From the IMG/VR virus record IMGVR_UViG_3300027667_000003, positions 71,606 to 110,892 of that record: 39,287 bases of DNA. One strand, written 5' to 3'. Source of the stretch: a virus. The notes under the pieces were generated by a model. It did no database searches. It was given only the letters and a program-made list of their open reading frames with translations, and had not been told where the DNA came from. Both the position numbers and the translations under genes were made by a program. Below are positions 12,059 through 33,070 of this stretch, in pieces. Within the stretch, counting starts at the first letter, position 1. Each line of letters opens with the position of its first letter.

Positions 12059-12106
12059 TTCTCTCCTCAAAAGAGAACGAATCGGGGTGTGTTTGAGGCA
12101 CACCCC
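12059..12106 (-). promoter_or_regulatory. Kissing-loop RBS-sequestering RNA element (copy 1)
   Basis: GGGGTGTG-CCTCAAA-CACACCCC ... TTCTCT-TTTGAGG-AGAGAA; loops are exact complements. Confidence 0.75.
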
Positions 12107-12154
12107 TATCGAGAAACCTTAACACAAGTTGCAACCTATGTCAAGGAGATTTTG

Positions 12155-12239
12155 CTATTGGATCGCGGGCACACTGTCTATAAATCTGATCCTCTGTGTA
12201 TTGAGGCCGGTGGCCGGGGGAAGCGTGATGGTTTGGTGG
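12155..12239 (-). CDS. Major capsid protein, exon 2 ((F)HQTITLPPATGLNTQRIRFIDSVPAIQ*)
   Basis: Removing 12240..12478 joins TT|C (Phe) in frame, giving a 341-aa protein with a plausible capsid C-terminus. Confidence 0.88.
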
Positions 12240-12478
12240 CTAAATGTTACGCCGCTCTTTCGAGCGTGAGTCAGTCATTTCTGCTGACTTCTCATGATTG
12301 TTGTCTCATGAGAACAGACTATCGCATCGCCCCAAAGGGCGTTCTCTCGCTTAGTCGTTCACGGTGCCTTTCGGCTTCCGCCTTGTCGCCCACTCGGGGG
12401 TTCAAGTCGATCAGAGAGAATTATCTACTAACAGATTACGCTGCTAGGAGTCCGCGATCTTCATCTTGAAGATCTTCA
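12240..12478 (-). mobile_element. Group I self-splicing intron (239 nt, no internal ORF) in major capsid gene
   Basis: Exon ends in U with U.G in P1 (AGUU/GACU); intron ends in G. P2 CUAGCAG/CUGUUAG, P3 UUCUCUC/GAGAGAA, P6 GCC-GAAA-GGC, P7 GACUA/UAGUC (AACGACUA...GAUAGUC), P8 CGCCC/GGGCG, P9 hairpins including CGCUC-GAAA-GAGCG. Confidence 0.92.
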
Positions 12479-13419
12479 AACTTATAAGAACACCATCCGC
12501 CAATTGTTGCCGTGGGATCGAAGCTCGACGGTGGCGCGTCGGTTACAACGCGACAGTCGATCGTGCGCCAATCTCCTTCGTCCAGATCCGTGTCGCCCGG
12601 AACTTCGAGCCACACGCCGATCATCGCATAGTTCCCGAACACATAGGAACGATACGCGGTCGAACCAGAACCCTTATAGTTCGGGGTCGTGGTGACGAAC
12701 GGGGTCTGACGGATCACGATATTCGTGCCCGGCAGTTCCAACTCAGCCTTCTGATCGGAACCCGCCATCTTGTCGAACTTATCCTGCATGCCGTACTTCC
12801 AAAAATCCACGATTGAGTTATTAACAGTCGTGGCATTGTAAATATCGCCCAAGACGTTCGAACTCACAACGCCCATATACTTCCCCTTTTTGCAAGGGAG
12901 AACGTTATGTGAAACCAATTGCTGCTTGAGTTCTCGATAAGTTCCGAGATCAAGAGTGAACGGCGAAGACAGCAAACCGCTTTGGTTGACGTTAGCATCG
13001 ACGCCAGCCGCGGAGTCCGCTACTGCGCTGTACAGTTCGGAAATGGTCTGACCGCCCTGGTATCCCAGTTCGACAGCCGAGTTCCCGACCACCTCATCAA
13101 TTGCGGATGCGATAACCATCGAACTGAAGTTCGAATAGTTGTTCCATTCGCCAACCTGCGCCGGAGCGGAGATCTGAGAGATGAGTTCCGGCGATCCAAC
13201 AGTACCGTCCGCTGACTGCGCGGTGTCCGCGCCCAACGTATTGTACTGAAAGAAAGTCCGGTTGATACCCATGTGCAAAGGCTGCACACGTCGTTCTGCG
13301 GCCGCAACGAATGCGTCCGTTTCGCCTTTCAGGTTCGGAATCAATTCTTTGTCGAACAGAATCGCCTGGGCGGTTAATACGTTTCCTACGTTTTGTGCTG
13401 AGGGGTTAGGACCACTCAT
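12479..13419 (-). CDS. Major capsid protein, exon 1 (HK97 fold, N4 gp56-like)
   Basis: Position after portal and scaffold; size; 'FDP...GW..KF' C-terminal region; the ORF-track tail EDLQDEDRGLLAA is intron sequence. Confidence 0.85.
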
Positions 13420-13459
13420 AATTCACCTGCAAAAACTGGAGTCAAGCTTCGTGCTTCGT

Positions 13460-15061
13460 TTAGGCTTTGATGCCTATTGCATTGAGTTGCTTTACGAAGT
13501 TCGGATCCTTCAACTTCCGACGAAAGGTTGCCCTTCCCTCAGGAGTATTAGTCATCCTCGCGACCTCTTGTTTTGTTAGTCCGGCAGGTTTTGTCGTACC
13601 TGTTGCCCGCCCCCCATGGAGCGTGCCTGGTTCGATTCCTGCCGCCGGAAGCTTACGAGCCGGTAGCTCTGGCGGATTAATCGCCGCTACTGGTGCCTCA
13701 ACCGGAGTTGATGCAGCGGCCGAAGCCGTTGCCGCAACTGGTGCAGTAGCCGCCGCGGTATTGGCCGCCGCTTGCTCCTGCTCAATCTTTTTCTTTGCTT
13801 CTACTTCTGCGGCCGCTTTAGCTGTCGCTTCGGCTTCCGCTTGAACTCTTGCTGCCTCGGCATCCGCCGCGGTCGTATCTGCAACCTGGGGAGGATTGTT
13901 CTCCACACGAGGCGCTAATTCTTTTTCTCTTTCTGCAAAAGCTAACTCAAGATTATCCACAGTCCATTCGAGTTTGTTTTCCTGGATATAATCCCCTAAA
14001 ATCTTTGCGTTTGCTTCACAAGCATTAAACTCGGGATGATTCTTTCTGAACTCAAGACTTACCGCTTGTCCTCGATTAAAATCTTCTTGGCGACGATTTT
14101 TAAGCTGTAACTTCCTGGCCTCATTCAACTCAAAAGCGACCTTGGCTTTCGATTGAGCGATCTCGTCTTTAGATTCTAAATCTTTCTGAATCTTTAAAAG
14201 TTGCTCTTCTGATAGAAGCTCTATGGGCACTTCCGGTTGTTTAAATTCCGGCTTGATCGATGCCCGCTTCTTCATACGCTCTGCGAAACGCACAGCATTC
14301 TCATGACAGGCTTGTAACTTCTCTGCCATCTCTTCCCAAGAATCTGCTTCGAGATGTGTAGGACGCCCAATGGGGTTTCCTGCCTCATCCCTATTCTGAT
14401 ACTCACGTATAATCTTTTCTTTAGGCTTAGCCGCCTCTTCTGCAATAATCCGTTGAGCGTCTTCTAAAGATTTTTTCTCGGCTTCTGATTTTGCTGCAAC
14501 GTCGGCTGCGATCTTATCCGCCGCTACTTTATCGGCCGCTGCTTTCTCATCAGCTTCTTTTTGGGCGGCTTCGGCCGCGAGACGCTCAGCTTCTTTAGCT
14601 TGCGCATCTTCCACTGCGGCTTTCTCTGCTACTCGACGATCCAATTCAGCTTGTCTCTCTGCCGGTCGCAATGAGTTCAAATACGAATCGTCTCTTTCTT
14701 GAGCTATCCTAGCGGCTTCTTCTACCCGCTCTGCTTCGGCTTGCGCGGCAATCTGAGCCTCATACTCAGTCTTGCGCTCTTCCGAGGTCATACGCGAAAG
14801 ACGAACAACCTCTGCTTCGCGATCCCTCTGGGCCTTCTCACGCTCTGCATCTAGCTCTTGTTTACGTTGAAGCTTTGCTGCCTCAAGGGCACCCAACCTC
14901 TCATTCTGACCTGTAAGCTGAGCGGCAACTTCCTCTGACTTCTGACGAAGAACCTCGTCAATTTCCGCTCGACGAGTAGCCATCTCGGTCTTCATCTTAG
15001 CGCCGTCCCACTTCATAATTTCTTCATACGTCAAAGTCGTTACTTTCGTTTCGTTTTCCAT
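13460..15061 (-). CDS. Capsid scaffolding protein
   Basis: 533 aa, Glu/Ala/Lys coiled coil, Pro/Ala linker and short basic C-terminal helix; immediately upstream of capsid. Confidence 0.75.
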   Translation of the reverse strand: MENETKVTTLTYEEIMKWDGAKMKTEMATRRAEIDEVLRQKSEEVAAQLTGQNERLGALEAAKLQRKQELDAEREKAQRDREAEVVRLSRMTSEERKTEYEAQIAAQAEAERVEEAARIAQERDDSYLNSLRPAERQAELDRRVAEKAAVEDAQAKEAERLAAEAAQKEADEKAAADKVAADKIAADVAAKSEAEKKSLEDAQRIIAEEAAKPKEKIIREYQNRDEAGNPIGRPTHLEADSWEEMAEKLQACHENAVRFAERMKKRASIKPEFKQPEVPIELLSEEQLLKIQKDLESKDEIAQSKAKVAFELNEARKLQLKNRRQEDFNRGQAVSLEFRKNHPEFNACEANAKILGDYIQENKLEWTVDNLELAFAEREKELAPRVENNPPQVADTTAADAEAARVQAEAEATAKAAAEVEAKKKIEQEQAAANTAAATAPVAATASAAASTPVEAPVAAINPPELPARKLPAAGIEPGTLHGGRATGTTKPAGLTKQEVARMTNTPEGRATFRRKLKDPNFVKQLNAIGIKA

Positions 15062-15090
15062 TTGATTTTCCTTACATTAGATTGTGATAC

Positions 15091-15462
15091 TCAAACCCGT
15101 GGGGGTTTAATTCTTGCCGAACCGAAGACTGAACTAACAACCGAACGATCTACGCCGGCTGCTTCCACGCCTTCTTCAAGCTTTCTCTGCTCTTCCAACA
15201 TCTCACCTGACATCTCGTGCATCGTAACCGATTTAATTATAGCGGCACAAAGCTCATTGATAAGACTTGCATCTGTCTGATATATCTTTACCAGACGATC
15301 GTAATCGGGGTTATCTCTTTTTAATTTGATAACCTTAGTGGTAGCCTGAAGACAAGCATTCTCCAACAACTTTAAAAAAACTAACCAGCCGGGATGTTTT
15401 GTAAGACTGCCTAAATAAAGCTTTTCATCCAAGCCTAAACCTTCATAACTAAGTGCATCCAT
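15091..15462 (-). CDS. Small helical protein between portal and scaffold
   Basis: 123 aa; AGGAG RBS; 'HPGW..F' motif; syntenic position typical of podovirus-like head modules. Confidence 0.7.
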   Translation of the reverse strand: MDALSYEGLGLDEKLYLGSLTKHPGWLVFLKLLENACLQATTKVIKLKRDNPDYDRLVKIYQTDASLINELCAAIIKSVTMHEMSGEMLEEQRKLEEGVEAAGVDRSVVSSVFGSARIKPPRV

Positions 15463-15479
15463 TGGGTACTCCTATTATT

Positions 15480-17624
15480 TTAAAGCGCTGATACATCTCC
15501 GAAACCTTTTGTTGTCGGGGTGCCCTCAACTTCAGGTGTAGTCAAAGCAGCTTCGGTTGTTTGTCGTAATGCTTCCGCACCCGCTTTACCTAATTGTTTT
15601 TGATCTTCTAACGTCTCTTCATGTTGGAATTGTTGTAATTGCGATTGCTGCTGTGCCTGCAACTGTCGGGCTTGCAAAGCTGCCGGCGAATTAGCGTCAT
15701 GCTTCTGCTTCTCATCGGGTGTCATCTTACGCAAGAAATCATTACTAAATTTCCAACCCGACATATCTGTGAGAGCTTTAAAGATTGCCAAGCCGTCGAA
15801 CATATAACCCGCGTCAGCGACGTTGGCCGAAAACGTGGGATTATTCAAAAGCTGCATAACTTGTGGGATGGCCTGAAGCATTTCACGTTTCGGACCCAGA
15901 TGAGCACCGGCCAAAACTTCATATTCAATTTTGGCGTTGCGGAACTCCTCATGATCTACTTCGTACGTCTCATTCATCTCCTCGCTTAATACATCGCGAA
16001 GAACTCGGGACGGAAGATAATCGTTGTTAAGCTCATCCATTTGATACAGCCAGGGTACAAAAATCTGACGGATAAATCTTCCGTCAGGGCCGTCTAGTCT
16101 AGATGCGTTAGCCTGAACGACAGCCGCGGCACCGGTGCCGGATCGAGCACCAGATGTACGAGCACCTGACAAAGTATTGCCTTGTCCGAACAACTCATTT
16201 GAGCCTGATGTCGAAGCTCCCGTTGACTGAGCCTGTTGAATGAACTGCCAAGCCTCACCCGGAACCGGAGGCATGGTCATAAATTTAAATGATTTGTCAA
16301 CATCATCGTCCACATCGATAATGCCGCCCAACTTCCATCGCGTAGCTTGTGTTGGTGTGTTGAAACCTTTTTTACGTATAGCAGTGGGCTGTAGACCGTA
16401 AGCCAATAGATCGAGTGCAAGATTGGTTACACCCTGCTCCACTAATTGTTCGCTTCCGATCAGTACTCCCAATCCCTGTCCGTAAAAACAATCGGGAATG
16501 TTCCGCCAGTTTGCACTGAAGAAGGGAATCTTACCGTAAGGATTCTCTTCGTTACGTATCAAGATGTTATGCCCATTACAAGACAACACAACTATGACAC
16601 GTTCTTTATCCCAACGCTCTAATATCTCAAGACCGTTACCTGTAGGATCTGCGGTAGTCTTATAGTTACGAGGAACGGCGTGTTGAAGATATCCCCTCAT
16701 TCCTTCCGGAATAGTCAAACTAAGATTATCGGAACCGGGTGTACTATCTTTTCCCCGCATGAAGAGTTGTTTTAAAACAGCTTCTTCAGGAATCTCATAA
16801 CCATCAACACCACGAAGAATATCCAAATCCTGGTATGTCGCGAAGTCGCGATAAACAACATGATGAGCCCGGCGGATATCGCCGTAACGACATCCCGGAT
16901 CCACAAACACCGTGCGTATGTCGCAGTATTTAATCCAAGGTCGGGAGACTATCTTATCTTCATACACAACTTCAAAATCATCTGATACCGTTGTATGAAT
17001 TGGTTTGGGGCCGGTCGGAGTCTCAAGAGTCTGAGGCACGCCTTTTCTCCGACGCTTTTTGATCTTATCTTTATGTTCGGTGTATCCCCACTTCATGATA
17101 CAAGTACCCAACAAAGCCATCTGATCTAATGCTCGTTCCGACTCTTCCTCAAACTTCATATCCCAAAGCTGATATGAAAATAAAGCAGTCTTGGCACGAA
17201 CGATATCTTGAGTAGTTCCTGGACGTGGCCGAAGAAGAAACGGGGGATCCTCATAAAAAATTCCGCCCATCAACTTCGGAACAATTGCTGAAATGTGATT
17301 CGAAACCATGAACTTCGGGACATTAGCCTGCGCTACATTGCCGCCGTCAAAAGCGGATGCGGTCGCCGGCGACTGATACAAAGTGTCTGCCAAAGTCCAA
17401 CCTGAAGCCCATTGCAAAACATTAATGTAATTTTCAGCAAAAGACAAGTCATCAATTACGAGTTTAACGGCTGCTTTATCATCGAACTCAAATTGTTCTG
17501 TTAGCGAACTCCAAGTGACATTATCATCAGTCATCTCATTCGCAGGCTCGACGTACAACGCCTCGATTTTCTCTTCGGCTTTAGATGTGCGGGACGAGCC
17601 GGACAATAGATTGTTATCTGACAT
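15480..17624 (-). CDS. Portal protein
   Basis: 714 aa directly after terminase; 'NPYGKIPFF', 'FYGQGLG', Gln-rich C-terminal helix as in P22-like portals. Confidence 0.85.
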   Translation of the reverse strand: MSDNNLLSGSSRTSKAEEKIEALYVEPANEMTDDNVTWSSLTEQFEFDDKAAVKLVIDDLSFAENYINVLQWASGWTLADTLYQSPATASAFDGGNVAQANVPKFMVSNHISAIVPKLMGGIFYEDPPFLLRPRPGTTQDIVRAKTALFSYQLWDMKFEEESERALDQMALLGTCIMKWGYTEHKDKIKKRRRKGVPQTLETPTGPKPIHTTVSDDFEVVYEDKIVSRPWIKYCDIRTVFVDPGCRYGDIRRAHHVVYRDFATYQDLDILRGVDGYEIPEEAVLKQLFMRGKDSTPGSDNLSLTIPEGMRGYLQHAVPRNYKTTADPTGNGLEILERWDKERVIVVLSCNGHNILIRNEENPYGKIPFFSANWRNIPDCFYGQGLGVLIGSEQLVEQGVTNLALDLLAYGLQPTAIRKKGFNTPTQATRWKLGGIIDVDDDVDKSFKFMTMPPVPGEAWQFIQQAQSTGASTSGSNELFGQGNTLSGARTSGARSGTGAAAVVQANASRLDGPDGRFIRQIFVPWLYQMDELNNDYLPSRVLRDVLSEEMNETYEVDHEEFRNAKIEYEVLAGAHLGPKREMLQAIPQVMQLLNNPTFSANVADAGYMFDGLAIFKALTDMSGWKFSNDFLRKMTPDEKQKHDANSPAALQARQLQAQQQSQLQQFQHEETLEDQKQLGKAGAEALRQTTEAALTTPEVEGTPTTKGFGDVSAL

Positions 17625-17630
17625 TAAATC

Positions 17631-19793
17631 TTATTGCTCCTCGTTTCCGTCTTTCTTAGACCCTCGACTGAAACCGATCGTCGGCCCCGATCTTTGAAAT
17701 CTACCCAATTGACTCAATGCTTCATGAATTGGATCTACAGCGGGGGGCTCTTCGAGGGACTGTTGAGTGTTAATATAAGTCGTAGATGTCGGCCCCACGC
17801 CATGAATCATATTATAAAAAGCACGACGACGTTCCTTCTTCTCTAAATCTTCTCGAACTTCTTTTTCTTCTTCTGTATGAACACTTGCAATGTATGGTAA
17901 AATCTTTTCAACGTATCCCATCGCGTCCGGAAGATCGTCTTTCCTACCAGATTTTGAAGTCTTATGTAATTTTTTATCACCGTTGTATCTAACTAACTGC
18001 CTAACCATCTCTTCAATTCCGGTACAATTACCGAACCGCAAAAGTTCTTTCTCGTGTAAAAGTTGAAGGCCGCGAATCCTTTTTTCTTTTGCCCCACGAG
18101 TTCCTTCAGGTGTAAACCAACTTATATTATGAGAAACTCTTCGCAATTGAAGCTGTTGTAAAACTTCATTTTTGAATGAGCCGGCTTGACCTGGAATTTC
18201 TTCTACATATGCAGAACAATCCCACTTAATCATCATCTCGACAATTTGTCGGGCTATTTCTTTATCGGAGGCGTGGACAGCACGAGTCTCTGGGAACCAA
18301 ATAAGAGGATCTTGATCCTCTCCCTTATCTTCAATACCCGCCGCAACCAAAGCATTCCAATCAGATTTTCTTCCGTCCGTAAGGGCTGTGTCTACAAAAA
18401 TCGCTTTTCTCGAAAATGTAACCGGAATCTCAGATATCCTTTTTACTTTTGCATAGATATTTTCTTCAGTAAAAGTGTTAATATAAGGAGCATCATCGCC
18501 ATCTGTCAAAGCTGCTGGTTGATTCAGTTGCTGACAACGGAAATTTCGCTCATTATCTACAGCCTTCGCTTTCAAAATTTTGAAAAGACCGGGACCGTAA
18601 TCCATTAAAAGCTCAACGTCCTCCGAAACATAATCTTTGAACTTCTTTCCGGATGCGTGCGATAAAGTCACCCAGGCGGGTTTTATCAAAATCTCCCACC
18701 TATCATCTTCCGACTTTTCTATACGACGAATAATCTCACCGTACAAATCCCGCACTCGCGTATCTTTCTCGTCGTCCTGCTGACCGTCTGGATTATCGCC
18801 AGGCGCACCGTCCGTGTATCGAGTTCCGACTACAGTACAATAACCGTAAGGTCGAATAATCAACTCGCACACAAGATCAAATGTTTCCGCGACGGACATT
18901 CTCTGTTCAGGTTTTTTATAATTCTTATCATCCTGGGCGTCATCAAATGTCACATGCGTTGCACGAAAACCCGCTGTACTCGATTCAACTGATGTGTAAG
19001 CCAGAGTTGCATACGGAATATCTAAGTGCGCCATTGGGCATCTATACTCTGTGCCTTCGCCGTCACCTACCGGTATACAAAACTCGGGAAAATAGCATTG
19101 AAAATCTGTCGGCTCATTGTAATTCTTGACTTCAAAATGAGATCGAACTTCCTCAATTCTTAGCTTTCCCAATTTTCGAGTACTCGTACAAATCAAATGG
19201 GTTGTGTCTGGTGCGTTCAATATCCACTGAATAATATCAATAAGACACGCTGTAGTTTTTCTGAAACCCCGAGGGAACTCTAATAAGCGATTATGTTTTT
19301 CAGACTGATCTAACAACCACTCGTTGAGTTGGTCCTGTGTATACTTAACAGGAAGCGTACTATTATCTTTTTTGACGAAGAAATCAAACAATATACGATG
19401 TGCCTTCTCGTGCCACTTACCTTTGTGTCCGTATAGATTATTTGCTAGATCCCACATTTCAGCGCGGAGTTCCCGGCGACGGGCAAGCCAAGTATCAATA
19501 TCAATCTCTTTTTCGGAGCCTTCTAGCTTTCGGCCAAAGACTTTGATGCGCTTAATCTTGTTCCGGTCTTCTTTATCTTTTTTCTTGGGCGTGTTATCCG
19601 CAATCGACGATTGGTCGGCATTCTTATCAAAGCCGTTGAAGACGCACCACAACTGAAAAGGCGTTAATAACTCGCCGGGTATAGGCTCACTGTCCTGTAA
19701 ACTTTTTACAAACTCTTTTGCTTCTTTTTTCTTCTGGGCGTACTTCTTATTGTACTCGCGTTTCTCTTCACCTGAAAAAGCCATTGGACACAT
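17631..19793 (-). CDS. terL: Terminase large subunit
   Basis: Walker A-like FPRGFRKTT, Walker B VTFDD, coupling motif VGTRY, nuclease acidic residues (FVDTA, SDWNA, KDDLPDA). Confidence 0.92.
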   Translation of the reverse strand: MCPMAFSGEEKREYNKKYAQKKKEAKEFVKSLQDSEPIPGELLTPFQLWCVFNGFDKNADQSSIADNTPKKKDKEDRNKIKRIKVFGRKLEGSEKEIDIDTWLARRRELRAEMWDLANNLYGHKGKWHEKAHRILFDFFVKKDNSTLPVKYTQDQLNEWLLDQSEKHNRLLEFPRGFRKTTACLIDIIQWILNAPDTTHLICTSTRKLGKLRIEEVRSHFEVKNYNEPTDFQCYFPEFCIPVGDGEGTEYRCPMAHLDIPYATLAYTSVESSTAGFRATHVTFDDAQDDKNYKKPEQRMSVAETFDLVCELIIRPYGYCTVVGTRYTDGAPGDNPDGQQDDEKDTRVRDLYGEIIRRIEKSEDDRWEILIKPAWVTLSHASGKKFKDYVSEDVELLMDYGPGLFKILKAKAVDNERNFRCQQLNQPAALTDGDDAPYINTFTEENIYAKVKRISEIPVTFSRKAIFVDTALTDGRKSDWNALVAAGIEDKGEDQDPLIWFPETRAVHASDKEIARQIVEMMIKWDCSAYVEEIPGQAGSFKNEVLQQLQLRRVSHNISWFTPEGTRGAKEKRIRGLQLLHEKELLRFGNCTGIEEMVRQLVRYNGDKKLHKTSKSGRKDDLPDAMGYVEKILPYIASVHTEEEKEVREDLEKKERRRAFYNMIHGVGPTSTTYINTQQSLEEPPAVDPIHEALSQLGRFQRSGPTIGFSRGSKKDGNEEQ

Positions 19794-19810
19794 CCTATAA
19801 AAACTATTGT

Positions 19811-21179: not shown

Positions 21180-21731
21180 CTACAATGTAACAGTCCGTTG
21201 AGATATCGTAAATTCAACAATACGATTCACCCAAGATAAAAACTCATCTTGGGAAAGATCATTTTTAGCTAGATTACAAATAGAACAGCAAGGCACAACG
21301 TTATTTAACTCATACCCTACGCTATTTTCAACACGATCTATACCGTTCCAGAAATACTTAAAACCGCCTCTGCTTTCTTTTTCTAGTGCGGGGGATGCGC
21401 CGCAATAAAAACAATTACTGGATGTAATTTTACGGAACTCTTCTTTTGTGAGATTGAAAGTATAACCCCTTCTTCGTGCCGAAGATTTGTAGCTATACAT
21501 TATATAATTCAAAGGTGCGTCTGGATTCACGCTAAATTCTCGTCTATAACACCCACAACTTTTTGTTGATCCTGTTTTCAAACTAGCCGAACTTATGGTA
21601 TGATCATTACCGCAATCGCATTTACAAAACCACTGTACCCAATGTCTACCATCTATTGATGTTCTACTTGGAACTTTACTTATAACTACTAGCTTACCGA
21701 ATCTCTTTCCTATAAGATTGCTTACAATCAT
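21180..21731 (-). CDS. HNH-type homing endonuclease with N-terminal CDCG zinc-ribbon domain
   Basis: LIGKRFGKLVV...WFCKCDCG...SCGC; CFYCG...GIDRVENSVGY...NVVPCCSICN. Confidence 0.88.
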   Translation of the reverse strand: MIVSNLIGKRFGKLVVISKVPSRTSIDGRHWVQWFCKCDCGNDHTISSASLKTGSTKSCGCYRREFSVNPDAPLNYIMYSYKSSARRRGYTFNLTKEEFRKITSSNCFYCGASPALEKESRGGFKYFWNGIDRVENSVGYELNNVVPCCSICNLAKNDLSQDEFLSWVNRIVEFTISQRTVTL

Positions 21732-21734
21732 ACC

Positions 21735-21776
21735 TTCTCCTAACAGAATTGATCCGGGGCGTGGTTAGGCACGCCC
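21735..21776 (-). promoter_or_regulatory. Kissing-loop RBS-sequestering RNA element (copy 2)
   Basis: GGGCGTG-CCTAAC-CACGCCC ... TTCT-GTTAGG-AGAA. Confidence 0.7.
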
Positions 21777-21814
21777 ACGAATCTACGCCCCGGTAATGAG
21801 CCGAGGAATGTTTT

Positions 21815-22928: not shown

Positions 22929-23598
22929 CTACTCCTCGCCTTTGTCCGAAGGATCAGCTTTCTTATTCTCCCCTAATAAGGGAATAACTTCATCGTTGGG
23001 CATCACTGCGACAACACCGCCCGGATGAATCAAATCTTCTTTGTCTGTTGCATAATCTTTAAGATAACCTCTCAAAGCTTTACTGAGATCTTCCCAGTAA
23101 ATAACATTTGAAAGATGACCGACTACAATTGCTTTCTTATTTGGGTTCTCAGCAGTCCAACTAGAAAGATCTAATGCAAAATCCTTCTGTCTATTTCTAA
23201 AATCACTAACGCTCTCGCCACCCGGAAAAGGTTCAGTCGGGTTTTCAAGATAGTAATCTATTGAAGTGGTAGCTTTATCTTCACCGGTGAAATCGCCCAC
23301 ATTTAGGGGGCGAAGGCGCTGATCCGTGTGAATGTCTTTCAAACCTAAAATTTTACCTATGATAGCGGCCGTATGAAGTGCTCGATCTAAATCTGAGGTG
23401 ATAACGATCCCAAACGAAACAGGTTGTTTTGCTAAGAAACGCCCCGCAACTTTAGCTTGACGAATACCCTTCTTATCCAAAGCAGCCGAATCATCATCGG
23501 ACCAGCCCCTAAATTTGTCAGATTCATTAAAGTTCGGTCGTGCCATGTCTCACAAGAAAGAATAAAGCGTTTCTGACATCTTTATTCTCTAGTGGCAT
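22929..23598 (-). CDS. Histidine phosphatase (phosphoglycerate mutase family) split by a +1 frameshift
   Basis: ATG 23598 gives MPLENKDVRNALFFLVRHGTTEL* (RHG motif). The rest (NESDKFRGW, SDLDRA, GGES, VVGH) is in the +1 frame after CTT-TAA at 23532-23527. Confidence 0.8.
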
Positions 23599-24184
23599 AA
23601 TCTCGACCTTCTCCAATTTCATATCTCGCTATATAGGATTGAACGCGTTCTACAACACCGGGATGATTCTCAATAAAACCAATAAATACGTTGCAACCCC
23701 GATGAACCAACTCTCTACAAAGACCGCTCTCGTGGTCATGATCAAAACATTGGTTTAAAGTTTTTAGTGGATTTAGACAGATTGCACAAATTCCTTTTTG
23801 CTTTTCAAACTGTTCTTTTCTTACCACTGTCCACCAATTTGTATCAAAACCATTTCCTGGATGTTTATATCTACCGTTGACTGGGGCGTTTCTGTTAGAT
23901 GCTCTGAGAGTATTCTTCCTTCCCGAACATTTAAGACAACCCGTTGACCGACCGTTAACCAAAGATCTCTGACCTACTTCTTTTTCTGTTCCGCAATCAC
24001 AGTGGCAAAACCAATAACGAATGCCGTTGCGTATTGATCGTTTCTCTAAAGCAACCCAACGCCCGAATCTCTGCTTTGTTAAATCGCCCGTTCTATCCAA
24101 AGCCTGAGCAATCTTGTTTTTAACTTCTTCAGAAGCAGTATGTCCTTTTACAAACACACCTCTCTCATTTCTTTCCGTTATCAT
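23582..24184 (-). CDS. Endonuclease VII-like (His-Me finger) homing endonuclease
   Basis: QKGICAIC...FDHDHESGLCRELVHRGCN; N-terminal HTASEEVKNKI and WFCHCDCG domains. Confidence 0.88.
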   Translation of the reverse strand: MITERNERGVFVKGHTASEEVKNKIAQALDRTGDLTKQRFGRWVALEKRSIRNGIRYWFCHCDCGTEKEVGQRSLVNGRSTGCLKCSGRKNTLRASNRNAPVNGRYKHPGNGFDTNWWTVVRKEQFEKQKGICAICLNPLKTLNQCFDHDHESGLCRELVHRGCNVFIGFIENHPGVVERVQSYIARYEIGEGRDYATRE

Positions 24185-24188
24185 TTTT

Positions 24189-24230
24189 ACTCTCCGTAAT
24201 AGAGTCGGGGGTGATTACGGCACCCCCAAC
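24189..24230 (-). promoter_or_regulatory. Kissing-loop RBS-sequestering RNA element (copy 3)
   Basis: GGGGGTG-CCGTAAT-CACCCCC GACTCT-ATTACGG-AGAGT. Confidence 0.75.
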
Positions 24231-24400
24231 CGTTTACTACAAAATCTTTAAAGGGCCGTTCGTTCCGAATGCTCTTCTGGGTCGAAGTAGTTTTCGACTT
24301 AGGTAAGATGGTCAAGCTACAACCATGCGGGACCGTTCCCGCGTGCGCTCATCCAGCCCCGTCGGAGATGAGTTCTTCTTCGGAAAGAACCCGAACTTAT

Positions 24401-25763: not shown

Positions 25764-25877
25764 GAGACACCTAAAGTTTGTTCGCGGCTATAACGCAAAC
25801 TTGCTCGGGATTTCACCTATACGTTGACTGGAGCCGCTTAATGCGTACTGCCAATGTCAATCGAATTTAAAATTTGC

Positions 25878-25922
25878 CGAAGTGCTATACAAGATGCTAT
25901 ACAGTTGTATAGCACCCCGGAC
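25878..25922 (-). terminator. Hairpin/terminator with duplicated 3' arm
   Basis: GTGCTATACA pairs with either of two TGTATAGCA copies; just after the stop of 25929..26567. Confidence 0.45.
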
Positions 25923-25928
25923 TTGGAA

Positions 25929-26567: not shown

Positions 26568-26700
26568 TTGTATTACCTCTTGTTTATGTACCGAACCCGT
26601 AGAGGATCACCCCACGAATAAGGCTTTAATGAAGAATAACACAAAAGGTTTTTTGTGCCATTCTATTAGGCGCTTGGATCGAACTGCGCCGAAACTCTTT

Positions 26701-27081: not shown

Positions 27082-27111
27082 TTTAAATCTCCTGTCCGCA
27101 AATTCAACTAG

Positions 27112-28278: not shown

Positions 28279-28307
28279 ATATAAATCTCCTGATTTCTAA
28301 ATCTAAA

Positions 28308-28478
28308 TTACAGCTTAGCCTTGACATCAGCTACAAGCTTTTTGACTTCCGCAGAAACAGAAGACTCAGCCTTCACGAGTTCTGCCCTAACGGCCGCGAG
28401 CTTACTCGCATTCTTCACACGACCGGCTCCGAAGCCCAACCCTAAACCCAATGCTCCAACTACGATTAAACTCAACAT
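28308..28478 (-). CDS. Small membrane-anchored protein (56 aa)
   Basis: MLSLIVVGALGLGLGFGAGRVK...; AGGAG RBS. Confidence 0.7.
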   Translation of the reverse strand: MLSLIVVGALGLGLGFGAGRVKNASKLAAVRAELVKAESSVSAEVKKLVADVKAKL

Positions 28479-28564
28479 TTAAAATCTCCTATGAAAGCCG
28501 CCACCATTGTGAAGGCCCCAATTAAAAGTGTGAAACCAGCGACAACTGAAATTAAATTATCCAT
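28472..28564 (-). CDS. Small hydrophobic peptide (30 aa)
   Basis: MDNLISVVAGFTLLIGAFTMVAAFIGDFKC; overlaps both neighbours. Confidence 0.4.
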   Translation of the reverse strand: MDNLISVVAGFTLLIGAFTMVAAFIGDFKC

Positions 28565-28841
28565 TGCTCACGATCGAATTAGGCTTGCCGCCCGTACGAA
28601 CAGATGGTATAGATTGGGTATCATGACTGATGCCCGCTCCTGCACCTCTGTGATGCGCGGGAGGAAGAGTATCTTCATTATGCTGAAGTTCTTTGGCCGG
28701 CATTGCGGATTTAGAAAACTTCGCGTTAATCTTACGAGGAGGCACAGCCATTCCCTGAGAAGGTTGTGCGGCTTGCTCTTCGTGTAAATCGACATGAGCC
28801 GAGTTCTTCAAATTCAAATCCGATCGTTTCATATGCTTCAT
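28557..28841 (-). CDS. Small disordered hypothetical protein
   Basis: Start MKHMKRSD at 28841 with AGGAG RBS; 94 aa. Confidence 0.65.
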   Translation of the reverse strand: MKHMKRSDLNLKNSAHVDLHEEQAAQPSQGMAVPPRKINAKFSKSAMPAKELQHNEDTLPPAHHRGAGAGISHDTQSIPSVRTGGKPNSIVSNG

Positions 28842-29081
28842 AACTTCTCCTAAAATGTATACATCCAGCCGAACGTTTCGAACCGGCTTCCTTACGACTA
28901 GATGCCTCTTGCGAGGTATTATCCAATCAAGAGATGCTATCTCAGGACGTGGATCGAATCTCATCAACTCTTAATCCGGCCGAACCAGGAAGCTTGAGTC
29001 TTTGAGATCATATAAAATTTGCGCCACTTACAAAGCTGTCAAGCGGGCAGGCGCTCGCCGTTACGACGTGATACGTCGATA

Positions 29082-29291
29082 TTAAAAAGGAGGTGGGTTA
29101 CGACTGTTCTCCGGAATATTTGCGGCCGTTCGATCGTCCGTCGGTTTAACTATCCGACTGTCCGTACCGGGAACAGAGGAATTATTTGATATTTGTCCTG
29201 TGTATGTTTCAGTCTGTTGTACGTTAATAGCTGTATTCGGAAACGTCGCGTAACCTCTACAATCTGGAACACTGTATGCGACTGTTGACAA
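29082..29291 (-). CDS. Small hypothetical protein
   Basis: 69 aa; AGGAG RBS, TTG start; repeated D[CSD]R/NSR motifs. Confidence 0.65.
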   Translation of the reverse strand: MSTVAYSVPDCRGYATFPNTAINVQQTETYTGQISNNSSVPGTDSRIVKPTDDRTAANIPENSRNPPPF

Positions 29292-29404
29292 ATGATTCTC
29301 CTGTCAAAATTTTGCGATGGCCTATTGAGAGCCTCACGCAATCGCTATTGCGCCCGGTAGTGACCGGAATAGTCTATCCTACAGATAGACACGTTTGCAA
29401 AGTC

Positions 29405-29698
29405 TTAACGCTCTTTGTAATTGTTGGGGTCGGTGGCTGAATTCGAATCACCCCCGCTGTTGCTGTGGGGCTCGTTATCAGTGAGCGCCGGGGGATGTCC
29501 AGTCTGCTTCGCGATTGCTTTCTTAGCTGCACCCACATCTTCTTGAGCATCCTTCACAGATTCTTTTTCGTATGACGAGGGCTTGCCTAATGCGTCGTTC
29601 TCGTCGTCCGTCTTACCCGCAGGCACTCGTGTGCCCATGGATGGATCAGCGACCTGACCGTAAGCCTTTTTATAATCTTCTGACATATTTTTATTCAT
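29405..29698 (-). CDS. Small acidic disordered protein
   Basis: 97 aa; AAGGA RBS. Confidence 0.65.
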   Translation of the reverse strand: MNKNMSEDYKKAYGQVADPSMGTRVPAGKTDDENDALGKPSSYEKESVKDAQEDVGAAKKAIAKQTGHPPALTDNEPHSNSGGDSNSATDPNNYKER

Positions 29699-29706
29699 AC
29701 AATTCC

Positions 29707-29928
29707 TTAATTGGTTTGACTACCCCAAGTGATGATTGGTTGGTAGGGACTAAAATCCGGAGTCCGAGGTACAATCACCGGTGGGTAGTAAGGATAGATC
29801 GGCGCGGCCGGGGCGGGGGTCGGTACCGTAATTACGGCCGGGCCTCTCAATGCCAACTCCAAAAGCTGCTTTCGAAGATCTTTCACTTCTGCTTCTAACT
29901 CTGCGATTCTCTTTTCTAATCTTTTCAT
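29707..29928 (-). CDS. Small coiled-coil/Pro-rich protein
   Basis: 73 aa; AGGAAGG RBS. Confidence 0.65.
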   Translation of the reverse strand: MKRLEKRIAELEAEVKDLRKQLLELALRGPAVITVPTPAPAAPIYPYYPPVIVPRTPDFSPYQPIITWGSQTN

Positions 29929-29942
29929 GGCCTTCCTAAAAT

Positions 29943-30016
29943 TGGAGCGGGGTGGAGGAATTGAACCTCCGACCTTCCGATTAAAATCCGGTGCTCTTTC
30001 TCTGAGCTAACCCCGC
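29943..30016 (-). tRNA. tRNA-Lys(UUU)-like, atypical anticodon arm
   Basis: Acceptor GCGGGGT/ACCCCGC, encoded CCA, D stem GCTC/GAGC, T arm GGAGG-TTCAATT-CCTCC; anticodon arm CCGG-ATTTTAA-TCGG is one nt short. Confidence 0.8.
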
Positions 30017-30021
30017 GTAGA

Positions 30022-30411
30022 TTACTTAATCTCATTGACTATGTTGCAGGCACAGCGCCAAGACTTTAAATCATTAAGAACTATACAGGAACCTTTCTCA
30101 ATGGGGAACAAAGCCAAAGCCGTTGTTGCGCCCTCAGTCATGTGCGAAAAATGTCGATTAAGGTTATCTCGGTATTCCAAGAAGTCAACGCTGGAATCCG
30201 CGAGTTTCTTTTTTAAATCTTCAAGATCGTTCGAGGTCGGCACTTCAAGTACGATCAGATCTAACTGATCGGCCTTCACATGATGCTGTGCCAACAATAC
30301 CGCAATATGAGCGGCGTGAGCAGCCATACGGCCACAGGACATACAAATGTTATTTCCTTGTGTGTCATAAACAGTTCTAGGAATGATGATGTATATCCGG
30401 GGCGATTGCAT
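30022..30411 (-). CDS. Peptidyl-tRNA hydrolase, Pth2-like
   Basis: IYIII.R...MS.GRMAAHAAH...IVLEV...L..L...RD...T.LAL.P matches the PTH2 pattern (canonical GK.AAQ..H). Confidence 0.72.
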   Translation of the reverse strand: MQSPRIYIIIPRTVYDTQGNNICMSCGRMAAHAAHIAVLLAQHHVKADQLDLIVLEVPTSNDLEDLKKKLADSSVDFLEYRDNLNRHFSHMTEGATTALALFPIEKGSCIVLNDLKSWRCACNIVNEIK

Positions 30412-30432
30412 TATGCCTCTCTTCCAAATCGA

Positions 30433-31122
30433 TTATCGTTCGCTTTGCTTTGCAGTGAAACTTGTTAATGTGGCCGCTATACTATCTGGAGGTACTACTG
30501 CTCCTGTGAACACTAACCCTAAACTCAATTGCACTGAAGGAGCCAAACCAAACTGATTCATGCGGCTTGAAAACATAGCGCCTAAATAAGACATCGTTCC
30601 AATAGTTAAAGTGAAGCTGCTGGATAACTGTCCCAAACCCCCGCCTCGAATAAGACACTTCAAACTCCAGGGCACTTGTGTTTTAGAGCCGGCTAAAGGA
30701 AACTGTGCGCCCGGCAGGACCAAGGGATCAGCCACTACTGAAATGTTTGCAACGCCTGTTCCCACTTGTGAAAAGTAATTCTGATCCAATTCAAAAGTAC
30801 AAGAGGTTCCGGTTGCCAAAGGACTTGTGATTGTACCTCCGGCGTTGATAATACATTTATTGGAAACAAGCCATGCATAACTAGGCATAACCAAAAGCTC
30901 ATTGGGCATTTTATAATAACCCAAATTGCTTTGTCCGTTCGGCAGTGTGCGACCGGTTAGAGGCGCGGATGGTATCTGTTGAAAAGACGAACGAGAAGGA
31001 TAGTTGGGCCAAATAAAATTCTGTTTACCCGTACTCGTAAGATTTATGAGAGAGGGGGTAACAACAGAAGCGTTGTCAAATGACTGCCCTACAATGCTCT
31101 CGTTACCTGGCGGGAAATCCAT
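30433..31122 (-). CDS. Beta-rich putative virion protein (paralog of 25929..26567)
   Basis: 229 aa; GGAG RBS; shared motifs. Confidence 0.6.
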   Translation of the reverse strand: MDFPPGNESIVGQSFDNASVVTPSLINLTSTGKQNFIWPNYPSRSSFQQIPSAPLTGRTLPNGQSNLGYYKMPNELLVMPSYAWLVSNKCIINAGGTITSPLATGTSCTFELDQNYFSQVGTGVANISVVADPLVLPGAQFPLAGSKTQVPWSLKCLIRGGGLGQLSSSFTLTIGTMSYLGAMFSSRMNQFGLAPSVQLSLGLVFTGAVVPPDSIAATLTSFTAKQSER

Positions 31123-31369
31123 AGGACTCCAAAATTAAAAGGGTTCGTCTTATCGGGGGCTGTGATATTATCCCGAACCTTTTTAGCCGTGTAAATCTCA
31201 GGATGCCGCTAGACGGGATAGCACTCTTAGAGTGATCAACAGCCAAACCGGCAATACCCAGTGACCTCGTTTTTAGAGATTACAGACGTAACTGACATCG
31301 CCAACTATGTTGGTGATAAGCCTCTGATCAGGGAGGACAATATCCGAATCGATGTCTTCTCTCGCGAGA

Positions 31370-31462
31370 TTAATAATCTTTCCAAACTTTAACAAGCACT
31401 TCAACAGCGGCCACAGCACACAGGGATCCAAAAGCCGATAAGGCCAGTATTCCCAAAATCAA
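31370..31462 (-). CDS. Small membrane peptide (30 aa)
   Basis: TTG start, MILGILALSAFGSLCAVAAVEVLVKVWKDY. Confidence 0.4.
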   Translation of the reverse strand: MILGILALSAFGSLCAVAAVEVLVKVWKDY

Positions 31463-31463
31463 T

Positions 31464-31673
31464 TCAATCTTCTCTAGAGGGCTCATCTTTCACCAGCTTT
31501 CCGCGGTGATCAACTTCTCGGCCGGCCGAATCTTTTCCTTCACCTACTTCATAGACGGGCGCGGTGGGCTCTACTTCGGGATCCTGAGAACCCCGGCTAC
31601 AAACAGATTCTTCGGGATGACGGATACCACAGAAGCGGCAAATCTTATTTTGTTCCCAGATGTTATTAGACAT
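31464..31673 (-). CDS. Small protein with CxxC-H site and DSAGR motif
   Basis: 69 aa; AGGA RBS. Confidence 0.6.
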   Translation of the reverse strand: MSNNIWEQNKICRFCGIRHPEESVCSRGSQDPEVEPTAPVYEVGEGKDSAGREVDHRGKLVKDEPSRED

Positions 31674-31842
31674 TTTTAAATCCTATTCGTCGATTTAAAT
31701 CTATGTGACCGGTCTTCTCTAAATCCTTACGAGCGGTTTGCTTAATCAACTTGCCGGCTCTATCTAGCTTGCGGCCCGCCGAGTCTTCCGTTCCGAAGTT
31801 GCCCGCGTTGCCTTTTCCCGGTCGCATATAATCTTGACTCAT
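31666..31842 (-). CDS. Small protein with DSAGR motif
   Basis: Start MSQDYMR at 31842 (TAATG overlap, GAGG RBS). Confidence 0.6.
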   Translation of the reverse strand: MSQDYMRPGKGNAGNFGTEDSAGRKLDRAGKLIKQTARKDLEKTGHIDLNRRIGFKNV

Positions 31843-32015
31843 TAAAACCTCTGAGAGCAAATCAATTTACAAATTTTTTCTTTGAGTTCCTCTGTTAAGA
31901 CGGGCTCTTTTGATTTATCAATGCCCGCAATGTAAATATCATCGGCAAAGACGGGATGGGAGTCTTGATACTCGCGAACCCACTTAATTGTGTCTTGCAA
32001 TTTAAAAGTTTTCAT
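31842..32015 (-). CDS. Small hypothetical protein (57 aa, MKTFKLQDTIKW...)
   Basis: ATGA and TAATG overlaps with both neighbours. Confidence 0.55.
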   Translation of the reverse strand: MKTFKLQDTIKWVREYQDSHPVFADDIYIAGIDKSKEPVLTEELKEKICKLICSQRF

Positions 32016-32254
32016 TGAAGGGGTAGAACCGGCACGTCTAGTATCCGACCTTCCTCAACTGCTTCGGTTGTGAAATCGGATAACACTTTCATCATCCTAA
32101 CGGGATCGTCCTTCGTGTTGCGCATCATGCCTACCGCCGGGCTAGGATCAGTTCGGAACACGAAACCGAAGACGGCACATTTGTGCTTCGTCATGTCTCG
32201 AATAAAAGATTCCATCAAATTGATTACTTCTGGACTGAGTTGATTGTCGCTCAT
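32012..32254 (-). CDS. Small hypothetical protein
   Basis: 80 aa; ATGA overlaps. Confidence 0.6.
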   Translation of the reverse strand: MSDNQLSPEVINLMESFIRDMTKHKCAVFGFVFRTDPSPAVGMMRNTKDDPVRMMKVLSDFTTEAVEEGRILDVPVLPLQ

Positions 32255-32376
32255 GAATACTCATCAAACAGTTTGTGACAGCGCATACATTCTTGAACGG
32301 AGGTAGCGCCAGGCGCAGGTTCAAGTTCCGGTCGAGGTTTCAGTTTATGATCATTACTGCTTTTGCAATCTGCCAT
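32251..32376 (-). CDS. Small Cys/His zinc-binding protein (MADCKSSNDH...ECMRCH)
   Basis: GAGGAG RBS before ATG 32376; an alternative longer start at 32475 also has AGGAG. Confidence 0.6.
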   Translation of the reverse strand: MADCKSSNDHKLKPRPELEPAPGATSVQECMRCHKLFDEYS

Positions 32377-32543
32377 ATTCTCCTCTTCGGACGATTCGAA
32401 AACTGGGCCACCGGTGTACTTTGAGAACTGGATCAGAAAACTGATGGTGCGCGACCAGAGGCCTCGGGCGTTCATGAAAAGCTCCTAGTTCACGGAAGCG
32501 TGAACACGCCAACCATGGGTGTACAAAAGAAACGAATATTAAA

Positions 32544-33017
32544 CTATGCGGCTTTCTTCCAACAGACAGAACATACTCTTTGAAAAGGTTTCATAGGCTG
32601 TCCGCATTTACATTGCGGGCCTTCGTGTTTATTCTGTATTTTGGGATTGAGCTTTGATTTAATATCTTCGGCCAAGGCTGCGATTTCTCTGTCTTCCGCA
32701 TTGCCTTTCAATTCATTTGCTCGCCAAGATATAATCCTGATATTGCCGGGCACGTAGCCGATTGAATTATCTATGCGGTCTAGCGACGGTGTGTCGGGAT
32801 ACTTAAAACCTCGGCCCATGCCACCTACTCGATATTGCAATTTTATCCAGGAAAACACCGGACAAAACTCAGGTATCTCTGGAATGTCCTGTAAACTCAA
32901 AGAGCACTCAATACCTTTCGTCTTGGCATTATGTCGGGCTCGATACAAAATGAACCTTGCCGGGAAAGCTTCTCGTCTTTGATGCTGTAACTGCTTACGA
33001 CGGTCATTCACTTCCAT
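32544..33017 (-). CDS. HNH-like (His-Me finger) endonuclease
   Basis: RAR..AK.KG...CPV...PSLDRIDNSIGYVPGNIRIISWRAN.LK; C-terminal CKC...CSVC. Confidence 0.85.
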   Translation of the reverse strand: MEVNDRRKQLQHQRREAFPARFILYRARHNAKTKGIECSLSLQDIPEIPEFCPVFSWIKLQYRVGGMGRGFKYPDTPSLDRIDNSIGYVPGNIRIISWRANELKGNAEDREIAALAEDIKSKLNPKIQNKHEGPQCKCGQPMKPFQRVCSVCWKKAA

Positions 33018-33021
33018 GTTA

Positions 33022-33070
33022 GTCCCTCCTCGAAAGAGACAGCCGCGGGGAGTTCGAGGCTCCCCCGGCT
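33022..33070 (-). promoter_or_regulatory. Kissing-loop RBS-sequestering RNA element (copy 4)
   Basis: GGGGAG-CCTCGAA-CTCCCC ... GTCTCT-TTCGAGG-AGGGAC. Confidence 0.75.

Follow-up and report, generated by a model that had tools for sequence, protein, structure and literature searches.

We found that each of four nuclease genes in the window (the whole 39,287-nt stretch analysed here, from the 110,892-bp genome of an uncultured 111-kb soil phage) has a cis-acting leader RNA of ~50–60 nt 5′ of it. The leader is likely to form a pseudoknot between a hairpin loop and the ribosome-binding site (RBS), perhaps nucleated by a loop–loop kiss, which would keep translation of the nuclease low.

All four leaders (W1–W4) and their genes lie on the minus strand, and re-reading of that strand confirmed the order given in the original prediction at every site: a G-rich stem, loop A, stem, linker, short stem, loop B, stem and ATG. 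In W1 (12054..12111), an outer helix (12111-12109/12080-12078) precedes the first stem, P1 (12106-12099/12091-12084), which carries loop A (12098-12092); the second stem, P2 (12076-12072/12064-12060), carries loop B (12071-12065), which ends in the GG of the Shine–Dalgarno (SD) sequence, and the ATG is at 12056-12054. W1 folds at −23.3 kcal/mol (z −3.7; covariance model E 5e-14) and stands before a 220-aa GIY-YIG + NUMOD3 homing endonuclease gene (11394..12056; phrog_314, 5e-36). W2 (21729..21782; E 5e-10) has its outer helix at 21782-21778/21756-21752, P1 at 21776-21770/21763-21757, loop A at 21769-21764, P2 at 21748-21745/21738-21735, loop B at 21744-21739 and the ATG at 21731-21729, and is followed by an HNH-type endonuclease gene of 183 aa (21180..21731; phrog_374, 2e-20; phrog_1035, 2e-20). 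In W3 (24182..24231; E 2e-9), P1 (24227-24221/24213-24207) is extendable to 24231/24203, loop A is at 24220-24214, P2 at 24204-24201/24193-24190, loop B at 24200-24194 and the ATG at 24184-24182; the gene behind it, of 200 aa (23582..24184; PF02945, 5e-10), is of the Endonuclease VII type (HNH fold). W4 (33015..33069; E 5e-9) comprises an outer helix (33069-33066/33045-33042), P1 (33065-33060/33052-33047), loop A (33059-33053), P2 (33039-33035/33027-33023), loop B (33034-33028) and the ATG (33017-33015), and leads into a 157-aa HNH-type endonuclease gene (32544..33017; phrog_3322, 5e-27; phrog_3118, 2e-10).

The four loop pairs are exactly those predicted, and are perfectly complementary over 7, 6, 7 and 7 nt in W1–W4, respectively. 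Loop A is the exact complement of 6–7 nt that end in the SD GG, 7–10 nt 5′ of the ATG. At all four sites loop A begins with CC, and loop B finishes with GG followed by AG. The rule that loop A always begins with CC holds in the window but is looser family-wide, where ~85–90% of copies have C as their second loop base.

The leaders stand out from the rest of the genome. They were the only strong cases in a genome-wide descriptor scan, and their −55..+3 regions rank 1, 2, 3 and 5 in folding energy among ~125 genes. A covariance model (R1), built with P1 and P2 only and thus blind to the loop–loop pairing, recovered the four leaders from the 110,892-bp genome with E values between 5e-14 and 5e-9, the next match having E 1.6. 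When the whole window was compared with Rfam 15 at gathering scores, the sole match was a tRNA, and in four 3-kb regions that enclose the leaders none of its families (which include int-alpA, preQ1 and mini-ykkC) was matched at E≤1. The leader, which had been suspected to belong to no named RNA family, is indeed absent from Rfam 15, and is a candidate new Rfam family.

R1 added 18 copies from six related ~100-kb phage records, nearly all with a nuclease gene downstream, and in 18 out of 18 the loop was complementary to the SD flank. Scanning IMG/VR with a pattern that made no demand for complementarity yielded 67 matches, 52 of which had a perfect 7-nt complement. In all, the family comprises 69 distinct copies, among which 46 loop sequences occur. 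The loop was fully complementary in 38 of 39 parsed copies, versus 9 of 1444 (0.6%) after loops were swapped between copies. In alignment A3, the loop–loop helix is 92.8% paired (50–57% in slid controls), with double-sided changes at 6 of 7 pairs and all four Watson–Crick pairs at its middle positions. P1 is 92.3% paired; together the two helices show double changes at 14 of 15 pairs, and the observed values were reached by none of 500 shuffles. P2 also covaries (82.6% paired). The predicted conserved structure with a covarying loop–loop helix is thus borne out. The loop consensus is C-C/U-N-N-N-A-A: loop base 1 (C) and the G-C closing pair (41/44) are near-invariant and the 3′ end is mostly A, while bases 3–5 take all four values, always compensated in the SD flank, and the loop and flank sequences appear to have drifted by compensatory change. 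The stems contain 20 G·U versus 1 A·C, and the structure therefore lies in RNA of the gene's own strand. In most copies loop B ends 7–9 nt 5′ of the start codon, with AGG or AGA behind it, so that a strong SD (GGAGG or GGAGA) is kept.

We considered whether the fold is a pseudoknot or a kissing complex. Median energies were −13.8 kcal/mol for P1, −0.2 kcal/mol for P2 alone and −7.2 kcal/mol for the loop duplex. Under nested folding alone the SD is 28–66% unpaired, and any masking must therefore come from the loop pairing. The leader has two interleaved helices with covariation behind both (alignment A3 and permutation), as in an H-type pseudoknot, and complementary 6–7-nt loops that pair over their full length, as in kissing loops. 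From core P1 (6–8 bp) to loop B there are 5–16 nt (mode 9–12, none below 5), which is long enough to traverse the first stem. At the other crossing 0 nt are left over; such complete loop pairing, with no nucleotide to spare for spanning the groove, is known for kissing loops, of which ColE1 RNAI/RNAII and TAR/TAR* are the structural paradigm at 6–7 nt, and is unusual for H-type pseudoknots. Of the kissing-loop complex originally proposed, the full complementarity of the loops stands, but the two closed hairpins are less certain. P2 is marginal (3–5 bp), the gap between core P1 and P2 is only 2 nt in W3, and in many copies the helix-to-helix linker is 0–2 nt if the outer P1 helix is included, where two intact kissing hairpins are sterically doubtful. 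Because of these linkers, an H-type pseudoknot with an opened P2 fits better than a two-hairpin kiss.

In the mechanism that we favour, the very stable G-rich hairpin P1 would display a 6–7-nt loop, beginning with C, that pairs with the 6–7 nt whose last two are the GG of the strong SD. The rest of the SD, AG(G/A), could find a partner in a run of pyrimidines immediately 5′ of it, giving the short helix P2, and loop pairing and P2 together would bury the RBS in the pseudoknot. As both partners are presented in loops, the pseudoknot may nucleate as a fast loop–loop kiss. Binding of 30S subunits would then be rare, resulting in a low nuclease level from whichever transcript carries the gene. T-even homing-endonuclease genes are known to be held down by RBS-sequestering structures (PMC2988022). 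The sequence comparison bears out the structure, its covariation, its strand and the link to nuclease genes, and from it we infer the influence on translation, whether down or up, and the precise shape in three dimensions; the retention of a strong SD that is yet masked is a hint that repression is conditional and not constant.

The nuclease genes had been placed inside a late operon, which is right by position, but W1-type cassettes carry a promoter of their own. In the W1 cassette it is a sigma-70-like promoter (12116..12144, minus strand), with TTGACA at 12144-12139, a 17-nt spacer, and TGn and TAAGGT at 12121-12116. A consensus promoter scanner did not call it, because its −10 element matches at only 3 of 6 positions; TTGACA-17/18-TGnTAnnnT is, nevertheless, kept in W1-homologous cassettes despite differing −10 hexamers. 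Promoters of this type, the only recognisable ones, stand upstream of the whole leader, and the locked form would thus be the main transcript of those cassettes.

Rather than a constant brake, the leader could be a two-state switch, which we regard as possible, though unlikely. An open nested fold, made of the extended P1 and the weak P2 and leaving the SD largely free, would alternate with a locked pseudoknot made of core P1 and the loop–SD helix; the balance would be set by transcript start, temperature, a helicase or an RNase, and would result in nuclease synthesis at one stage of infection. P1 has an outer extension that reaches 4–5 bp in roughly one-half to three-quarters of the copies; its length exceeds that in permuted controls (4.2 versus 3.05 bp, and 3.3 versus 2.5 bp), and it shows compensatory variants. 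The outer helix and the loop pairing are mutually exclusive, because only 2–6 nt would be left to span 12–14 bp. The covariation of P2 and the strong SD also fit a switch, as does the start predicted for the W1-type promoter, which coincides roughly with the foot of the leader hairpin and with the 5′ strand of the outer helix; transcript 5′ ends are put to the same use in T4 (PMC2988022). However, the outer helix is absent from roughly half of the pattern-scan copies, and its support is modest beside that of the loop helix. For steric reasons the outer extension and P2 compete with loop pairing, and the masked form may thus be only part of an equilibrium. We tentatively suggest, as a minority view, a bistable switch free of protein and ligand, with two exclusive folds kept by covariation, between which the 5′ end, temperature or unwinding decides. 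If so, any selfish nuclease gene could obtain the leader by cassette exchange, and with it a portable timing device, and the leader could be a beacon for unknown mobile genes.

Hairpin-loop-to-RBS pseudoknots can also activate translation, as in the IncB/IncI-alpha rep genes. By analogy, the pseudoknot could activate or stabilise, with a 5′-terminal hairpin protecting the mRNA and loop pairing positioning the start region. Indeed, transcripts of W1-type cassettes would begin directly with P1, and the AGG/AGA half of the SD would be single-stranded in a pseudoknot with P2 open. We nevertheless consider activation improbable: what is paired is the SD itself, at its GG core, and not a neighbouring site, the genes encode potentially harmful nucleases, and the comparable endonuclease leaders studied so far all repress (PMC2988022). 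A further reading takes P1 as an operator for a protein, which could be the nuclease itself or an RNA-binding repressor from phage or host, with loop complementarity being secondary. The near-invariant bases at the closing pair and loop ends would suit a protein site, but it would have no need of loop bases 3–5 that vary freely with compensation in the SD flank, which makes this reading very improbable. Autoregulation by the cognate nuclease, raised in the original prediction, is unlikely, as five different nuclease folds share the leader and five RNA-binding specificities would be needed. Finally, a DNA-level feature of the cassette (a boundary, recombination or homing site), or a terminator combined with a chance-complementary RBS hairpin, is strongly disfavoured and has the slightest probability of all: the leader does mark the 5′ edge of cassettes and the W1 hairpin was flagged, if weakly, as terminator-like, but the G·U excess indicates selection on one transcribed strand, the register to SD and start codon is fixed, chance complementarity is 0.6% by permutation, W2–W4 were unflagged and three of the four hairpins lack a U-run.

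Among the known systems closest to the proposed masking are the RBS-sequestering hairpins of T-even phages, such as those of I-TevI, I-TevII, I-TevIII, segB and Aeh1 mobE: these, too, are cis RNA structures directly 5′ of homing-endonuclease ORFs of several families, pair with the SD, and serve genes that lie among essential phage genes (PMC2988022). RBS occlusion of endonuclease genes is thus already known, and the leader family is an extension and not a new category. However, the T-even hairpins are single and simple, with the SD in the stem, idiosyncratic for each gene and opened by an internal late promoter (PMC2988022), whereas the leader is one alignable family of 69 copies, has its promoter, where one is recognisable, upstream of the entire structure, and pairs its SD with the loop of a separate stable hairpin. 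A simple SD-in-stem hairpin was rejected, given the P2 median of −0.2 kcal/mol and a covarying SD partner in the P1 loop. In S. aureus, C-rich loops of RNAIII pair with the loop-presented SD of coa, rot and spa mRNAs, but in trans (PMC2837412); the leader loops are private to each copy, and their partners share one molecule, a few nucleotides apart, which sets the geometry against two intact coaxial hairpins. In preQ1-class and SAM-II riboswitches a hairpin loop likewise pairs with a 3′ strand holding part of the SD, and the H-type pseudoknot blocks initiation, but they keep an invariant ligand pocket (PMC11625349). The leader's loop bases, in contrast, are all Watson–Crick paired and freely varying, and it has neither an Rfam match at E≤1 nor a metabolic gene context. 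Guanidine-II (mini-ykkC) also has two adjacent small hairpins with kissing loops 5′ of the start codon, but its ACGR tetraloops are conserved and pair only with ligand bound (PMC9300104); the fully complementary, variable 6–7-nt leader loops, with their own consensus and 46 sequences, rule out identity with it. Leader structures also restrain transposase translation in IS elements, as in the fold-back inhibition of IS10. In IS200, a stem-loop of the tnpA 5′UTR similarly lets a selfish element damp its own potentially harmful enzyme via an SD-occluding fold (PMC4513863). IS leaders, unlike the phage leader, are simple stem-loops of different elements, with neither a loop-mediated pseudoknot nor a family spanning enzyme classes.

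How essential phage operons tolerate free-standing homing endonucleases is, to our knowledge, understood for only a few T4-type genes, each with a one-off hairpin. In these phages, one alignable RNA family with dozens of members and textbook loop-to-SD covariation would serve at least five nuclease folds, providing a testable hypothesis for dosage control of selfish genes. It would also offer a small natural system for the study of SD masking by a loop of the same molecule, with 46 'orthogonal' loop pairs already available, and a sequence tag for mobile nuclease cassettes, including ORFs without a known family. Not every nuclease gene has the leader: many in the same phages are without it, including, in the window, an additional GIY-YIG gene (2955-3524, minus strand) with no such leader upstream. 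Nuclease genes stand behind 21 of the 22 model matches in seven near-complete genomes, the exception being a 74-aa ORF, and make up 32 of the 35 ORFs behind the IMG/VR pattern matches. As had been proposed, the module accompanies free-standing endonucleases of unrelated families, at least five in number (Seg-like GIY-YIG, T5orf172-type GIY-YIG, EndoVII, several HNH groups and VRR-NUC); closely related leaders precede unrelated nuclease ORFs, which suggests a portable module. The carriers of the family form a clade of uncultured ~100-kb soil phages.

Our analysis confirms the leader as a genuine RNA element that is widespread, contains a covarying pseudoknot and occurs specifically with nuclease cassettes. 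The window covers the right-hand 39 kb of an uncultured soil phage (record length 110,892 bp), and its four leaders precede a GIY-YIG (W1), an HNH (W2), an Endonuclease VII-type (W3) and a second HNH (W4) gene. Direct reading of the minus strand showed, at each site, the order of elements described in the original prediction: a G-rich stem of 6–8 bp (P1) around a 6–7-nt loop beginning with CC (loop A), a linker, and a 4–5-bp pyrimidine/purine stem (P2) around loop B. Loop B is the exact reverse complement of loop A, with GG at its end, and is followed by AG(A/G) and, 4–9 nt further, by ATG. Both hairpins were predicted at 4/4 sites by single-sequence folding (−19 to −29 kcal/mol, z −1.8 to −3.7), and a descriptor scan of both strands of the whole genome returned these sites as the only strong cases of a hairpin loop with a downstream complement before a start codon. 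The downstream proteins are nucleases of the types that had been proposed, namely GIY-YIG/NUMOD3, two HNH-type and one Endonuclease_7-type.

Relatives of the GIY-YIG protein in IMG/VR revealed the same arrangement directly 5′ of the start codon in many contigs, where the loop sequence differs each time with a matching change before the Shine–Dalgarno (SD) sequence; for the EndoVII-type protein, only one weak locus was found there. We built a covariance model of the leader (R1) from 24 copies. As R1 holds only the two nested hairpins, it is unable to reward loop–loop complementarity. The model, a check proposed in advance, matched exactly W1–W4 in their own genome (E 5e-14 to 5e-9; next E 1.6), and found 18 sites in six related phage records of 64–119 kb. 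No copy was found by R1 in three unrelated large phages carrying GIY-YIG relatives, used as a specificity control, or in Tunturiibacter phage Tunturi_3, which alone among cultured phages has a recognizable relative of the terminase. At every newly found R1 site the loop is fully complementary to the bases leading into the SD. A second sample was chosen without any protein, by a pattern scan of all IMG/VR in which only G/C stem ends, CC, and GGAG 8–22 nt later are fixed; 52 of its 67 matches have a perfect 7-nt loop complement just 5′ of the SD, and the other 15 look like chance matches in GC-rich DNA. One further copy, missed by R1, turned up among the nuclease-like genes of five related genomes. 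Overall, there are 69 distinct leader copies with 46 loop sequences.

We analysed covariation between the loops. Full complementarity was seen in 38 of 39 parsed copies, compared with 9/1444 after exchanging loops between copies. In an alignment put in register, the helix of loop A with loop B (the loop–SD helix) reached 92.8% pairing; both sides varied in six of the seven pairs, and all four Watson–Crick pairs occurred at central positions. The observed values were equalled by 0/500 shuffles, and sliding the partner by 1–3 columns lowered pairing to 50–57%. The loop–loop covariation expected among homologues is thus present; we give the permutation tests more weight than the alignment figures, because the alignment was fitted to this helix. 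At the seven stem positions beside loop A and the three beside loop B, we counted 20 G·U against one A·C. These would be mismatches if read on the opposite strand, and the selected structure is therefore the RNA of the sense strand of the nuclease gene. In most copies loop B ends 7–9 nt 5′ of the start codon, with AGG or AGA next, so that its paired GG forms the core of an SD of the type GGAGG/GGAGA. The idea that loops are kept distinct within a genome to avoid cross-pairing was unsupported, as one contig (L048) has one loop twice and the diversity of the pool suffices to explain the differences.

The original prediction read the interaction as a kissing loop. Fully paired loops of 6–7 nt are a hallmark of kissing complexes such as TAR/TAR* and ColE1 RNAI/RNAII, and to that extent the reading stands. 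However, both hairpins are on one chain, and an intact two-stem kiss would need a linker spanning roughly the whole stack. The linker is 7–8 nt at W1, W2 and W4 and 2 nt at W3, and in many relatives it shrinks to 0–2 nt once the outer pairs at the base of P1 (an extension of 4–5 bp in about half to three quarters of copies) are counted. An H-type pseudoknot, in contrast, is sterically feasible in every copy. In this form core P1 would stack on the loop–SD helix, with P1 crossed by the linker and the 5′ strand of P2, a segment of 5–16 nt and never shorter. Since the pseudoknot is feasible in all copies and the linker is probably too short for a kiss in many, we read the loop–SD helix as the conserved core. 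P2 (3.7 against 2.6 bp of pairing in permuted controls, with extensions including six-pair versions) and outer P1 would then have an auxiliary role or serve as alternative helices; they may offer the SD flank for rapid capture, or may form an open state.

Median energies were −13.8 kcal/mol for P1 and a marginal −0.2 kcal/mol for P2 alone; a further contribution of about −7 kcal/mol comes from the loop duplex, if treated as a bimolecular helix. By folding energy of the −55 to +3 region, the four leaders rank 1, 2, 3 and 5 among about 125 genes of this phage. In nested folds, their SDs are 0.28–0.66 unpaired against a median of 0.54, and so are no more hidden than average; any masking must, therefore, stem from the loop–SD helix. 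The best-supported mechanism, which we infer to be the probable one, is that the leader throttles translation by hiding the SD. Among the remaining readings, a two-state switch is the most interesting, though less probable. In structure, the leader resembles the guanidine-II switch with its two hairpins and the pseudoknot riboswitches that act on translation, but it has no conserved pocket. Coupling to upstream translation is unlikely: upstream ORFs, where present, terminate about 35–40 nt before P1, and at that distance a terminating ribosome would not open P1.

The comparison with Rfam called for at the outset returned no existing family, no leader matching Rfam 15 at gathering scores or at E≤1; the int-alpA motif is thereby ruled out as well. 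The region around W1 (window 10556–13619; L082) likewise had no Rfam match at E≤1, and hence none to a group I intron model. Our literature search, which covered the 2023 catalogue of phage candidate RNAs by its main text, found no published description of the leader; the main text of that catalogue (10,006 candidates; PMC10690425) names no endonuclease leader, and that of Weinberg 2017 (PMC5737381) has no relevant motif. Mechanistically, the leader is a cis version of the kisses between C-rich loops of S. aureus RNAIII and SD loops. In function, the hairpins that sequester the RBS of T-even endonuclease genes come nearest to it, with the same position and presumed purpose; it falls outside the structural definition of these, being more than one hairpin, and the only promoters recognizable (W1 type) lie upstream of the whole leader. 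In T4, a gene-proximal promoter removes the inhibitory arm of the endonuclease RBS structure (PMC2988022), whereas in W1-type cassettes a putative promoter lies upstream and the leader would make up the 5′ end of its transcript. A TTGACA box 17–18 nt from a TGn-TAnnnT box is shared by W1 and homologues on nine or more further contigs; the TGn-TAnnnT box ends about 9–10 nt 5′ of core P1 (21 nt in one copy). This kept arrangement suggests that W1-type cassettes carry their own host-type promoter. The −10 hexamers vary between contigs, and the W1 promoter, recognized by conservation across homologues, was not called by a consensus promoter scanner.

Other subfamilies have different elements upstream of the leader, in place of the putative promoter. 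Within 1–11 nt 5′ of 9/77 leaders, ahead of different nuclease families, stands either a perfect 12-bp palindrome (TTGTAGCTACAA or TTGTACGTACAA) or TTTTGTAGTA, which resembles a half-site (W4, 33087–33076, minus strand; also L098, L132–L134, L137 and L154/L186); in the intergenic DNA of this genome it precedes W3 and W4 only, and may serve as a promoter or an operator. A TTTGTAG-type motif was ruled out as a general phage promoter, as its only intergenic occurrences in this genome are before W3 and W4. W2 has an extra small hairpin with covarying stems just past the upstream stop codon (21806–21788, minus strand), common to many peat and soil contigs (for example, L016, L048 and L064). In these relatives an AAATCTC-like motif lies before it and a CTAGAG-like one after it, the latter supplying the 5′ strand of outer P1.

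The proposed association with nucleases of several families was borne out by both samples. All 22 R1 sites in seven near-complete genomes precede nuclease genes, save one before a 74-aa ORF without family (L096:1501–1785, behind an intact leader). The nucleases are Seg-like GIY-YIG, a short GIY-YIG type, T5orf172-type, Endonuclease_7, VRR-NUC and several HNH groups, including PF01844, HNH_2 and phrog_2255. The 35 distinct complete ORFs downstream of pattern-scan matches comprise 15 Endonuclease_7, eight GIY-YIG and one T5orf172, most of the rest being HNH; three have no family. Nearly all of these genes are nucleases, and the unassigned ORFs are the 74-aa one and these three, a 300-aa protein (L133:3337–4236) and two related proteins of 122–125 aa behind typical leaders (L136:474–839 and L183:4752–5126). 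The related pair had no Pfam or PHROG match, and Atlas gave hypothetical proteins and weak NTF2-like leads only; they are possibly new cargo of leader cassettes. Across five related genomes, some sixteen more nuclease-like genes have no leader. Neither does a fifth GIY-YIG gene of the window (2955–3524, minus strand; homing-type, phrog_314, 6e-28), whose ATG lies one base past the stop of the preceding gene (TAA-A-ATG) with no SD visible. This suggests low-level expression by termination–reinitiation, which may be another way to restrain such a gene. Record G002, from a related phage, holds a pair of almost identical leaders, one before an EndoVII-type gene (L093) and the other before an HNH-type gene (L099), suggesting that either ORFs have been swapped behind a conserved leader or leaders have moved between cassettes. 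With closely similar leaders before unrelated ORFs, the leader behaves as an exchangeable module.

Among GenBank phages, nothing matched 14 kb of the window by megablast. The large terminase (17631–19793, minus strand) has only a distant relative there (22% identity), in Tunturi_3, a phage of Tunturiibacter (Acidobacteriota) from Finnish soil, and this gives the sole indication of host range for the phage clade. A tRNA gene lies at 29946–30016 (minus strand; Rfam RF00005, 51.5 bits). A decayed leader was seen at L054:111–170; it retains P1 and loop A in full but has lost the complementary loop B segment, with no ORF behind it.
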